Positions 44,551-55,127 of a stretch of 64,000 nt of DNA are shown here, piece after piece. Made by a program: the position numbers and the translations under genes. The DNA lies in the NCBI GenBank assembly GCA_023336205.1, contig JALQCR010000035.1, positions 2,930 to 66,929 of the forward strand, read 5' to 3'. Source of the stretch: Pseudanabaena sp. Salubria-1 (GTDB lineage: Bacteria > Cyanobacteriota > Cyanobacteriia > Pseudanabaenales > Pseudanabaenaceae). Each line of letters begins with the position of its first letter. Position 1 is the first letter of the stretch. The notes beneath the pieces were generated by a model that was not told the DNA's origin, made no database searches, and worked only from the letters and a program-made list of their open reading frames with translations.

Positions 44551-44979
44551 ATGGCTGACTTTATTTTAACAATGGGTGATTTAGCGATGTTTAATCCTGC
44601 CTTTGGGGCGGCGATCGTCACAGTGATACCAGGTAATTTAACGGGAACAGGCAAAATGATGATTAATAAAAAAATGGCTTGTATTGATGGGGATGAGAAA
44701 ACAGTTATGGTTCCCGGTTGTCCTTATATCACTGCCTCGCATCCTATCCCCGGAGTCGGTATGCTTAGTATTTCTTCCCTCGCACCAAACCAAAAAGCTG
44801 TCCGCACAAAATCGAATAATAAGCCAGTTTTACTAAAAGGAGGAACCTTTAATGCAAAGTTTCAAGTGCTTGTGCCAGCCCAACAGCCGACACCTGCGGG
44901 ACCAGTTCCTGATGCTACGCCGCAGTATTCGGGTACTGGTACTTTTATGACTACAAATATGCGTGTTAAAGGTACATAA
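44551..44979 (+). CDS. PAAR-like spike tip (Afp10/Pvc10-like)
   Basis: FNPAFGAAIV...ACIDGDEK.V.VPGCPY...PVLLKGGTF.AKFQV..PAQQP pattern. Confidence 0.75.
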   Translation: MADFILTMGDLAMFNPAFGAAIVTVIPGNLTGTGKMMINKKMACIDGDEKTVMVPGCPYITASHPIPGVGMLSISSLAPNQKAVRTKSNNKPVLLKGGTFNAKFQVLVPAQQPTPAGPVPDATPQYSGTGTFMTTNMRVKGT

Positions 44980-45091
44980 ATCGCAGATAATGAGTGCAAC
45001 ATCAAAGTTCTATTCGATCGGTTCTATTCGATCAATTTATGTATTGATTTGGTGTTGACCCGAACTTCAGTAAGTTAAGGACGAAATCATC

Positions 45092-52957: not shown

Positions 52958-52985
52958 TACTAATTAACCAAAGAAATAATACCTA

Positions 52986-55127
52986 ATGGATGATTTGATT
53001 CATTTCTTGCATCAGTTGGATCAGTGCTTGGAGACAGCAGTTAAGACTGCCCAAACATTATTTGCTGGGGGGATAGATGCCGATCCGTATCGTGGTATTC
53101 AGATCGGTGAACAAGAAGTAGAACGTTTGTTAAAACAAACTCCGTCTGAACCTCTTTTTTCGTCTTCAGTTTCACCATCAGTACAAAATAATCTCCATTT
53201 AGAAGTCTCTGGAACTGCGGAAACTTCTAAGTTTGTTTGGCTACAGGAGCAATTTGGGTTAGATAGCTTTGATCTAGGCGTTTTAGCGATCGCCCTAGCC
53301 CCTGAACTTGATCGTCGCTATGAACGCCTATATGCTTATCTACAAGATGATGTGCGAGCAAAGCGACCAACTGTCGATTTAAGCCTCAACTTATTGAGTG
53401 GTTCCGCGCTAGAAAAACTTGAACATCGAGTTCATTTTAGTCCAGATTCATCTCTTATTCATCATGGTTTAATTCAGTTAATTCCTGATCCTTATCAATC
53501 CTTACCTTCACTTCTAGCCCATAGCATTAAACTTGATCCCCTCGTTGTTAATCTACTCTTAGAGCAACATAGTTTAGACAATCGCCTGAGCCATTTTTGC
53601 AAGATAATTACACCTAAACAGAATGGGAAAAATTTACCATTAGCCGACAAAATTAAGCACACATTACCCAAACTTGTCCAGCATCATTGGGATGCTCAAA
53701 CCCCATTAACATTATATTTTCATGGCTCAGATCAATCCATCAAACAGGACGTAGGCGAAGCGATCGCCCTTGTACTCAACGTGCCACTTTTAATTGCTAA
53801 TCTGAACAATATTTCAGATGTGAAGTCAGAACTGGTATCAACATTTAGTATCCTTATAAGGGAAGCTAAATTTCAAAATGTATTACTTTATATCGACAAA
53901 TTAGAGCGATTACAACAGCCAGACCATGAGAATCAGTATCAAGATATTCTTAATCTATTAGCTACTCAAAATAGAGTAGTTATCTTAAGTGGATCTACTG
54001 CATGGAAAAATATCAATACTCAGCTTCAAGGCGTAGTTAACCTTTCTTTCCCAATGCTCGATGTTGAGCAACGTCACCATTTTTGGCAAAAGCATCTCGA
54101 AGCGGCTCACATCAATTTAGATAATGATGATCTCATGGACTTGAGCGATCGCCTCCGTCTAACTTCCGATCAAATTGCCAATGCTGTGGCGATCGCGACA
54201 AATCAGCAACAATGGCAAAACTTAGCCAAAGAGGAAGTATCTGCATTATCTTCTGAAAGCATCCAAGTCAGTCATCTCTTTAATGCAGCCCGAAGTTTAT
54301 CTAGTCAAAATCTTAAATCTCTCTCTCAACAAATTCATCCCAAATATGTCTGGGATGATATAGTCTTAGCCAATCATCAAGAAGCACAACTTAGGGAAAT
54401 TTGCGATCAGATCAAATACCAAAATCTAGTTTGGAATACATGGGGATTCAACAAAAAGCAGTCATTAGGTAAAGGCTTAAATGTCCTATTTTCGGGGATA
54501 TCTGGTACAGGTAAAACGATGTCAGCCGAAATCATTGCCCAAGAATTACAACTCGATTTGTATAAAATTGATTTATCCCAAATCGTTAATAAATATATTG
54601 GGGAAACAGAAAAAAATCTTAATCAGATTTTTACTGCCGCCGCTGATGCGAATGCGATTTTACTTTTTGATGAAGCAGATGCTTTATTTGGAAAACGAAG
54701 TAATGTCAAAGATGCTCATGATCGCTATGCTAACCTTGAAGTCAGCTATCTTCTCCAAAAAATGGAAGAGTATGAAGGATTAGCGATCTTAACAACAAAT
54801 CTCCGTAATAATATGGATGAAGCCTTCACAAGACGGCTACAATTTATTATTGATTTTTCTCTGCCAAATGAAAAGCAGAGACATCAAATTTGGCAGAAAG
54901 CATTTCCGAAAGATACCCCCTGTGAGGATGATTTAGGGTTCAGTTTCTTGGCTCATAACTTCGAATTAACGGGAGCGAATATTCGTAGTATTGCCTTAAG
55001 ATCTGCTTTTTTTGCGGTGAAAGAAAGCAGTATAGTTGAAAGGCGTCATGTTATCCAAGCTATTCGGCGAGAGTATCAGAAAACAGGTAAAATCTTAAAA
55101 GATAATATAGAGAATGGTTATCTCTAA
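52986..55127 (+). CDS. eCIS AAA+ ATPase (Afp15/Pvc15-like)
   Basis: LAPELDRRYERLYAYLQDD; Walker A GISGTGKT; LFDEADALFGKRS; DRYANLEVSYLLQKMEEY. Confidence 0.94.
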   Translation: MDDLIHFLHQLDQCLETAVKTAQTLFAGGIDADPYRGIQIGEQEVERLLKQTPSEPLFSSSVSPSVQNNLHLEVSGTAETSKFVWLQEQFGLDSFDLGVLAIALAPELDRRYERLYAYLQDDVRAKRPTVDLSLNLLSGSALEKLEHRVHFSPDSSLIHHGLIQLIPDPYQSLPSLLAHSIKLDPLVVNLLLEQHSLDNRLSHFCKIITPKQNGKNLPLADKIKHTLPKLVQHHWDAQTPLTLYFHGSDQSIKQDVGEAIALVLNVPLLIANLNNISDVKSELVSTFSILIREAKFQNVLLYIDKLERLQQPDHENQYQDILNLLATQNRVVILSGSTAWKNINTQLQGVVNLSFPMLDVEQRHHFWQKHLEAAHINLDNDDLMDLSDRLRLTSDQIANAVAIATNQQQWQNLAKEEVSALSSESIQVSHLFNAARSLSSQNLKSLSQQIHPKYVWDDIVLANHQEAQLREICDQIKYQNLVWNTWGFNKKQSLGKGLNVLFSGISGTGKTMSAEIIAQELQLDLYKIDLSQIVNKYIGETEKNLNQIFTAAADANAILLFDEADALFGKRSNVKDAHDRYANLEVSYLLQKMEEYEGLAILTTNLRNNMDEAFTRRLQFIIDFSLPNEKQRHQIWQKAFPKDTPCEDDLGFSFLAHNFELTGANIRSIALRSAFFAVKESSIVERRHVIQAIRREYQKTGKILKDNIENGYL

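Follow-up and report, generated by a model that had tools for sequence, protein, structure and literature searches.

In the 64,000-nt stretch of Pseudanabaena sp. Salubria-1 DNA analysed here (contig JALQCR010000035.1, positions 2,930 to 66,929; hereafter the window), positions 25866-55127 on the + strand hold a complete contractile injection system (CIS) locus that starts with a Pvc16-type cap gene and ends with an AAA ATPase gene. Its content comprises the cap, two sheath and gp19-type tube genes, a LysM tube initiator, a split spike, gp25, a 1204-amino acid (aa) Baseplate_J protein, a second Baseplate_J-like gene, a Cis12-like Tail_P2_I gene, the tip and the ATPase. The families matched were PF04984/PF17482 (two genes), PF06841 (two genes) and PF19266+LysM from sheath to tube initiator, and PF05954, PF04717, PF04965, PF04865, PF09684 and PF14065 from spike to cap; with all structural families together on one strand, the locus is of the Afp-PVC-like class, which is assigned from its genes. 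Positions 44551-55127 hold a module of four genes, for the spike tip, a giant DUF4157 protein, a YbjN-family protein and the ATPase, and the relation of this YbjN-family protein to the giant is the subject of this study. As an earlier reading from the DNA letters (the sequence-only reading) had described, all four genes lie on the + strand, and each was confirmed by Pfam. The module and the gene before it are as follows:

42644..44530, + strand: Cis12/Afp12-like baseplate gene (Tail_P2_I; PF09684, E 5.8e-14), the last structural gene before the module
44551..44979, + strand: CIS spike tip of the Afp10/Pvc10 type, 142 aa (PF19267 CIS_spike_tip, E 5.1e-52, residues 1-142 on profile 1-141)
45092..52399, + strand: DUF4157 giant, 2435 aa (PF13699 eCIS_core/DUF4157)
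52505..52957, + strand: YbjN-family protein, 150 aa (PF10722, 27.7 bits at a cut-off of 22)
52986..55127, + strand: Pvc15/Afp15/Alg15-type AAA+ ATPase, 713 aa (PF22977 WHD and PF00004 AAA)

The co-occurrence of YbjN and DUF4157 was surveyed at two levels. Among 401 cyanobacterial genomes, a YbjN homolog was present in 24, and DUF4157 was found in 19 of these 24 compared with 34 of the 377 others. At the gene level, a sample of 103 strong DUF4157 matches, not chosen by YbjN, contained 12 frames that are followed on their own strand by a YbjN gene, and none of these 12 is shorter than 916 aa; by frame length, the partner accompanied 12 of the 30 frames of at least 900 aa versus none of the 73 shorter ones. 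These counts include related genomes and are not independent of each other, which makes their p-values too favourable; the pattern of linkage between YbjN and large cargo is clear, and the association suggested by the sequence-only reading was found to be non-random. Across phyla, about 28 of the 80 best YbjN relatives lie directly 3′ of a DUF4157 giant, one of these giants being a Chloroflexota (Ardenticatenales) homolog of the window giant, paired with YbjN. The supplement of Geller 2021 lists pfam10722, uncommented, as enriched in operons of extracellular CIS (eCIS; odds ratio 6.1, 14 genes, two phyla, ‘Cloud’), and within the library searched, no paper was found pairing YbjN with contractile injection, eCIS or DUF4157.

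In the window’s own genome, with its two CIS loci, the giant is the only one of five DUF4157 genes that has a YbjN partner. Its second CIS locus (gp25 and a tube gene) is on contig C50, and contigs C50 and C27 (L136-L138, L141) carry another three to four DUF4157 genes, 403-853 aa long; the N-termini of their products carry duplicated ‘KLAIGEPNDKYEQEADATAARVVQQINSP’ motifs, unlike that of the giant, and none has a YbjN partner.

The linkage bears on the possibility that YbjN is a regulator or stress protein, comparable to E. coli YbjN and Erwinia AmyR, which controls the locus or serves an unrelated housekeeping role. Such a function is suggested by the annotation of the Pfam family and of its best structural matches (YbjN, AmyR) as regulators, and by the many homologs outside a CIS context. 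It is contradicted by the tight same-strand linkage to large DUF4157 genes only (12/30 versus 0/73), by the co-variation of YbjN with the type of cargo body, and by its fusion, in many loci, to a conserved extra domain seen only beside such cargo; we therefore give a regulatory role very little chance of being correct.

YbjN genes with a DUF4157 neighbour were found in two arrangements. In the window type, the tip is followed by a DUF4157 giant with homologous pre-repeat, repeat and post-repeat regions, a stand-alone YbjN of about 150 aa and the ATPase; its carriers are Pseudanabaena, two Spirulina, Nodosilinea and one genome of genus g18, and the pair of giant and YbjN occurs also in an Ardenticatenales (Chloroflexota) metagenome-assembled genome (MAG). 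The Nostocales/Oscillatoriales type (hereafter Nostocales type) consists of a fused VgrG, a 165-aa PAAR protein (PF05488), a DUF4157 cargo of 1480-2220 aa, one or two variable open reading frames (ORFs), a ~370-400-aa protein whose C-terminal half is YbjN, gp25, Cis11 and Cis12. The N-terminal ~190 aa of the fused proteins (about 370 aa) were modelled at a predicted local distance difference test score (pLDDT) of about 85 and showed no similarity to YbjN (hhalign probability 0.7%) and no match among PDB sequences. In a Foldseek search with the whole model, every match fell on the C-terminal domain, and the N-terminal domain has no homolog in the window; this extra domain is conserved in many loci, only beside such DUF4157 cargo.

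A third CIS context was also observed, in which one or two YbjN genes stand beside the gene of a ~800-aa protein that carries PBP_like_2 at its C-terminus; they open a CIS locus or adjoin afp15/afp16, and no DUF4157 gene is adjacent (L046 9210-12623, L050, and Limnospira maxima AmaxDRAFT_1265-1268 in the Geller 2021 supplement). In the same genus as the window, L053:3848-6985 (− strand) encodes a 1045-aa protein that has eCIS-type N-terminal motifs and three identical P/Q/S-rich repeats of ~45 aa but no DUF4157 domain; 3′ of this gene are a 160-aa ORF and then a 446-aa protein ending in a YbjN domain.

The window YbjN is a 17.4-kDa protein with an isoelectric point (pI) of 4.5, and its gene ends 28 bp before the ATPase gene. 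Its nearest public relative, in a Pseudanabaena MAG, is 88% identical, and an identical protein was found in at least 61 metagenome blocks; compared with its Spirulina counterpart it is 69% identical, on par with the structural genes, whereas the cargo parts outside DUF4157 are 33-47% identical. It belongs to the YbjN family both by its Pfam match above the gathering score and by its fold. The AlphaFold model, built from a 17-sequence alignment, reached a pLDDT of 94.5 with the secondary structure H-E-E-E-E-H-E-E-H, and its best Foldseek matches in the PDB were E. coli YbjN (6VU7), AmyR (5FR7) and DR_1245 (4H5B), with probability 1.00 and template-modelling (TM) scores of 0.54-0.67. The next matches were class-I chaperones of type III secretion systems (T3SS), namely ExsC, VecA, SycT, SicP, SchA, SycH, SycE, CesT, SpcU and Spa15; the TM range over YbjN relatives and T3SS chaperones together was 0.5-0.67. 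The resemblance to T3SS chaperones, which the sequence-only reading had put forward, is thus substantiated by a confident model and by matches to many class-I members.

Like a class-I chaperone, YbjN is a small acidic alpha-beta-beta-beta-alpha-beta-beta-alpha protein encoded beside a putative substrate. From the modelled fold, it may ‘work like’ such a chaperone, and we do not class it as a member. The likeness to SycE, SicP, CesT, ExsC, SpcU and VecA covers fold, small size, acidic pI and a gene beside the cognate protein, and extends to the possibility of several distinct chaperone-cargo pairs per genome; the differences are a sequence identity of 9-15% and a contractile-tail machine as the partner in the window. 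The locus contains no T3SS genes, with no search for them made in the rest of the genome. Class-I chaperones bind as dimers to the N-terminal chaperone-binding domain of an effector and act at the ATPase that strips and unfolds the substrate, whereas the site that YbjN would bind, judged from cargo comparisons, appears to lie within the body and not at the N-terminus. E. coli YbjN, AmyR and Deinococcus DR_1245 share the Pfam family and the fold, but they are stand-alone proteins, tied to stress, exopolysaccharide regulation or DNA-repair partners and not encoded beside secretion cargo.

What YbjN varies with was evident in three genomes of genus g18, in which the tip (99-100%), Cis12 (90-99%) and ATPase (92-96%) are nearly identical, while the cargos are 61-71% identical over the first ~260 residues and unrelated beyond. 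The gene 3′ of the cargo encodes YbjN-a, YbjN-b or a 168-aa non-YbjN ORF, changing in step with the cargo, and YbjN-a is 61% identical to the window YbjN but 28% to YbjN-b. Since the partner changes with the body under near-constant flanking genes, YbjN goes with the cargo body and not with the machine. The recombining unit is the cargo body plus the partner gene, and it reaches from where DUF4157 ends to where the ATPase gene begins. Of the exchangeable cassette proposed from the single locus, the swapped slot between tip and ATPase therefore stands (the body after about residue 260 plus the small gene), whereas the tip and the ATPase stay with the machine; a tip within the exchanged unit was rejected, as it is 99-100% identical across the three different cargos.

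The same comparison addresses whether YbjN could serve the machine in general, as an accessory or assembly factor (a co-factor of the ATPase, for instance) with no cargo specificity. The position of the gene 28 bp upstream of the ATPase gene speaks for such a factor, and the two genes are also adjacent in L113 (Caldilineaceae), L132 and Limnospira maxima. However, among ATPases 96% identical to each other, the accompanying YbjN proteins share only 28% identity or are missing, YbjN is absent from most CIS loci that have this tip or ATPase, and the Nostocales-type YbjN lies between cargo and gp25, far from any ATPase gene, which leaves a general factor little chance of being right. The 168-aa non-YbjN ORF (L161:9015-9521, − strand), 3′ of a 701-aa DUF4157 cargo, matched PsbP_2 at 25.7 bits, below the cut-off of 27. 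A PsbP-like fold is that of the Eag/DcrB chaperones of type VI secretion systems (T6SS), and the slot may here be filled by a second type of chaperone, unrelated to YbjN.

In the Nostocales type, the cargo bodies are 82-85% identical over ~1100 aa and the last 300 aa are without similarity, and the YbjN proteins are 79-82% identical despite these unrelated ends. One such cargo ends in Endonuclease_NS_2 and is followed by a SUKH-1 immunity gene; in another locus, a Tox-GHH ORF is in that position. YbjN stays alike while the warhead differs, and therefore does not follow it, which counts against YbjN being an immunity (antidote) protein that is swapped with the toxin end in the manner of polymorphic toxins. 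That possibility draws on the location of YbjN directly 3′ of the cargo, on its exchange with the cargo in genus g18, on the standing of DUF4157 proteins as a known polymorphic-toxin class, and on the occurrence of immunity genes (SUKH-1, for example) in these loci. Yet the Nostocales-type YbjN is kept while both the last 300 aa and the intervening ORFs differ, a separate SUKH-1 gene occupies the immunity position, the fold is that of secretion chaperones and of no known immunity family, several unrelated bodies are accompanied by one YbjN family, and the giant has no toxin domain recognised in Pfam, NCBIfam or PDB sequences. Although the DUF4157 cargo family as a whole is polymorphic, the giant and YbjN of the window do not show the combination of a C-terminal toxin domain and a downstream gene co-varying with it, and we regard an immunity role as unlikely.

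Hydrophobic segments (at least one of 19 residues) were found in 12 of 15 YbjN-linked cargos and in none of 8 unlinked cargos. The idea that YbjN protects such segments, as membrane-inserting parts, was considered and does not explain the window, where neither the giant nor its Spirulina ortholog has such a segment. The Nostocales-type giants (L077, L088, L041, L042, L049) carry a conserved hydrophobic segment (e.g. ALAKSLPVALGFLASLLGL) in a common body of ~900 aa.

The giant itself and its 3′ flank are composed as follows:

45092..45589, + strand: cargo N-terminal region, residues 1-166, Q/S/T/R-rich and probably disordered; candidate loading sequence
45590..45820, + strand: DUF4157/eCIS_core domain, residues 167-243 (PF13699, E 2.2e-29; the HExxH motif is HELTH at residue 232)
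46257..50372, + strand: array of seven 588-bp (196-aa) tandem units in the body, with diverged partial units on both flanks
50373..52399, + strand: last third of the cargo, in which a beta-rich Gly/Ala region (~residues 1761-2050) gives way to a K/E-rich helical tail
52404..52460, + strand: hairpin with a perfect 25-bp AT-rich stem, then UUUU, immediately 3′ of the giant stop codon

The giant amounts to 262 kDa, with a beta-rich body between DUF4157 and the Gly/Ala-rich region. It combines PF13699 and HExxH with a probably disordered N-terminus, a variable remainder and a place in a CIS locus, and by analogy with such proteins it is probably a cargo of the machine. DUF4157 is the published eCIS ‘core’ or effector marker, often N-terminal to toxin domains past linkers of >1000 aa (Geller 2021). 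Beyond DUF4157, the giant had no match in Pfam, NCBIfam or PDB sequences (the C-terminal 675 aa being compared with PDB sequences and NCBIfam), no toxin domain was recognised in these sources, and an exact-sequence look-up of the 2435-aa protein gave no record; compared with the Spirulina ortholog, the Gly/Ala region and the K/E tail are 47% and 33% identical. The 588-bp periodicity of the repeat DNA is perfect over 46257-50130, and the units are 100% identical except the seventh, at 97%. A 28-kb short-read metagenome contig, 98.5% identical across the locus, holds one unit only, giving 1259 aa (2435 − 6×196); in other metagenome samples, contig ends or scaffold gaps fall within the array, and the contigs of four more distant relatives likewise begin or stop inside it. 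The array is real, and its seven-copy count is neither confirmed nor refuted by these contigs because short-read assemblers collapse identical tandem repeats; the giant is 1259-2435 aa long, depending on the repeat count.

A giant of this build could alternatively be a structural, tethering or surface component that is not injected, with YbjN as its assembly chaperone. Its repetitive, beta-rich, rod-like body, its long coiled-coil tail, the lack of a recognisable toxin domain, a gene adjoining that of the tip and a mass of 262 kDa, large for a tube lumen, are all compatible with this. Nevertheless, DUF4157 proteins with a disordered N-terminus have been cargo wherever tested, sister loci hold unrelated proteins of 476-2435 aa or none in this slot, unlike a structural part, and the Nostocales-type homologs end in nuclease-type toxin domains; we consider a structural giant quite unlikely.

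The hairpin behind the giant gene has a folding energy of −30.7 kcal/mol (z −6.8), which 0 of 200 shuffles reached, and a diverged version was found in the nearest relative, L056, only; a partial terminator, an element of mRNA stability and a cassette-junction scar are possible identities. In a promoter and terminator scan of 44000-56300, the signal was no higher than in shuffles.

The ATPase has its WHD domain at 81-202 and its AAA domain at 500-625, with Walker A GISGTGKT at 504 and Walker B ILLFDEAD at 558. Its GTGK (507-510) and DEAD (562-565) are at nearly the same positions as those of Pvc15 (499-502 and 554-555), and its ~700 aa, N domain, degenerate D1 and predicted active classic-clade D2 in a CIS locus identify it, by sequence features, as a probable Pvc15/Afp15/Alg15-type enzyme.

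At the other end of the module, the tip gene is indeed away from the spike and gp25 genes and directly before the giant, as the sequence-only reading had noted, the order being gpD, gpV, gp25, Cis11-like, Baseplate_J-like, Cis12-like and tip. The tip is 84% identical to its Spirulina ortholog, and PF19267 tips occur in 14 of the 401 sampled cyanobacterial genomes. Among the mapped PF19267 loci, the tip gene is 3′ of Cis12 in 8 of 10, at times with a fibre-sized gene between, the spike is split (gpD/gpV) in every one where it is visible, and a DUF4157 gene (476-2435 aa) directly adjoins the tip in most, with the ATPase gene nearby; two show the reversed order ATPase, DUF4157, tip. The pairwise identities of tip, Baseplate_J-like, Cis12 and ATPase rank together (Spearman 0.53-0.79). 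A mosaic origin of tip and ATPase, at which the earlier reading had hinted, was rejected: a tip after Cis12 together with a split spike is the usual arrangement, typical of this CIS lineage, and the divergence of tip and ATPase ranks with that of the baseplate genes. The tip and cargo genes are 112 bp apart, and a 14-bp tandem duplication (GTTCTATTCGATCG, 1.9 copies) was observed there at 45007-45033.

These comparisons also concern the place of loading. No PAAR-DUF4157 fusions, which would hint at spike loading, were found in L128, L073, L060 or L084; the tip does not co-vary with the cargo, and loading onto the spike thus appears not to be favoured over loading into the tube lumen. Published AlgoCIS work on DUF4157 cargo favours the lumen (PMC8894135; bioRxiv 10.64898/2026.05.27.728243): Cgo1 and Cgo2 fill the tube lumen, and their loading needs the N-terminal region and the AAA+ Alg15, not DUF4157.

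The surroundings of the module vary. In the window, 55128-58797, 3′ of the ATPase gene, contains mobile elements, one encoding a DDE_Tnp_1 transposase and the other a Tn3-family transposase fragment of 566 aa. In metagenome contigs with 98-99% identity (L166, L169, L171), ~80-108 bp (window 56116-56223) are inverted right after the ATPase gene, and in one of these contigs a phage integrase gene follows it; the downstream boundary of the locus has therefore been rearranged between strains. In Spirulina sp. CS-785/01 (L036/L058), the CIS is circularly permuted relative to the window, with the order baseplate, tip, cargo, YbjN, ATPase, a 581-aa gene without assignment, then cap, sheath and tube, and the ‘terminal’ position of the module is thus not conserved.

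The eCIS itself is ordinary, and the cargo, the ATPase and the proximity of tip and cargo are of already known kinds, as published for DUF4157 proteins, AlgoCIS, the Anabaena CIS and PAAR neighbourhoods; DUF4157 genes are commonly near eCIS-linked PAAR subtypes. AlgoCIS of Algoriphagus machipongonensis has a like cargo, with a disordered N-terminus, DUF4157 and a variable C-terminus, encoded in the CIS locus beside an AAA+ ATPase; it differs in that no YbjN-like partner has been described, that its cargos are 498 and 1228 aa compared with 1259-2435 aa and an identical-repeat array in the window, and that lumen loading has been shown experimentally, whereas the window system is known from its genes. 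Pvc15 of the Photorhabdus PVC (PMC11495950) shares the N domain, the degenerate D1 and the active D2; there, however, the payloads have N-terminal signal peptides and no DUF4157, and Pvc15 itself is regarded as the chaperone, with no small partner known. The thylakoid-anchored CIS of Anabaena PCC 7120 (PMC8894136) is likewise cyanobacterial, and its DUF4157 proteins Alr3311 and Alr3312, present in purified particles, are thought to be lumen cargo; the published cluster, however, lists no YbjN gene and has other spike and tip types and another gene order. T6SS adaptors of the Eag/DUF1795, DUF4123 and DUF2169 families (PMC8651086) resemble the module in the set of a tip/PAAR gene, an effector and a dedicated small partner, which the Nostocales-type order of VgrG, PAAR, DUF4157 cargo, variable ORF and YbjN echoes, but they are of other protein families and load effectors onto the spike.

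On balance, we lean towards the reading that YbjN is probably a dedicated partner or chaperone of the cargo body, at the loading end of a complete CIS locus. The first ~260 residues of the cargo, with the disordered N-terminus and the HExxH-bearing DUF4157, would be a machine-specific address read by the Pvc15-like ATPase, which, as in AlgoCIS and PVC, would unfold the cargo and thread it into the tube. The remainder is a replaceable body, exchanged between strains with the small gene downstream. YbjN would bind this long, beta-rich, aggregation-prone body in the producer cytoplasm, keep it soluble and loading-competent, and be let go at the ATPase encoded 28 bp downstream, as T3SS effector-chaperone pairs come apart at theirs; a comparable service would be that of the Eag, DUF4123 and DUF2169 adaptors in T6SS. 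Binding, chaperone activity, handover to the ATPase and the presence of cargo in the tube lumen are proposed here by analogy. More tentatively, YbjN-fold proteins might form an undescribed class of CIS cargo chaperones, with a subtype for each family of giant bodies and handing cargo to a Pvc15-like unfoldase, a generalisation that we consider possible but hold with reserve.

Several observations weigh against a dedicated chaperone. In the DUF4157 sample, YbjN is missing from the neighbourhood of six of the 15 frames that reach 1200 aa, and many YbjN relatives (35-45% identity; Chloroflexota, Bacillota and other phyla) have no CIS context, some cyanobacterial ones adjoining ppc instead. A regulatory role is what has been described for E. 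coli YbjN and AmyR, and swapping together with the cargo would be expected of an immunity gene too. The window giant and its Spirulina ortholog lack the hydrophobic segments of other YbjN-linked cargos, and no common binding segment can be named because YbjN accompanies unrelated bodies. Finally, AlgoCIS and PVC load their cargo without a YbjN-like partner (PMC8894135; PMC11495950). Set against these points, YbjN as a new accessory, matched to the cargo body and with a T3SS-chaperone fold, is comparatively well supported.

Overall, the locus is a known type of system, with an eCIS, a DUF4157 cargo and a loading ATPase, plus an undescribed accessory, YbjN. How eCIS select a cargo, keep it fit for loading and thread it into the tube is not yet settled, which limits their engineering for protein delivery, and published models of loading involve only an N-terminal signal and an AAA+ ATPase. 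A cargo-matched partner with a T3SS-chaperone fold, found only with cargo of more than about 900 residues, would, if the proposed role is true, be a third player in loading and would hint at how these machines handle payloads of 150-260 kDa. The comparative data single out the part of the body that lies after DUF4157 and before the C-terminal warhead, for which the natural swap variants are ready controls, and a cognate YbjN could be required for the loading of very large engineered payloads. A class of such chaperones would also mean that phage-tail-derived injectors independently took up the chaperone-ATPase logic of T3SS.

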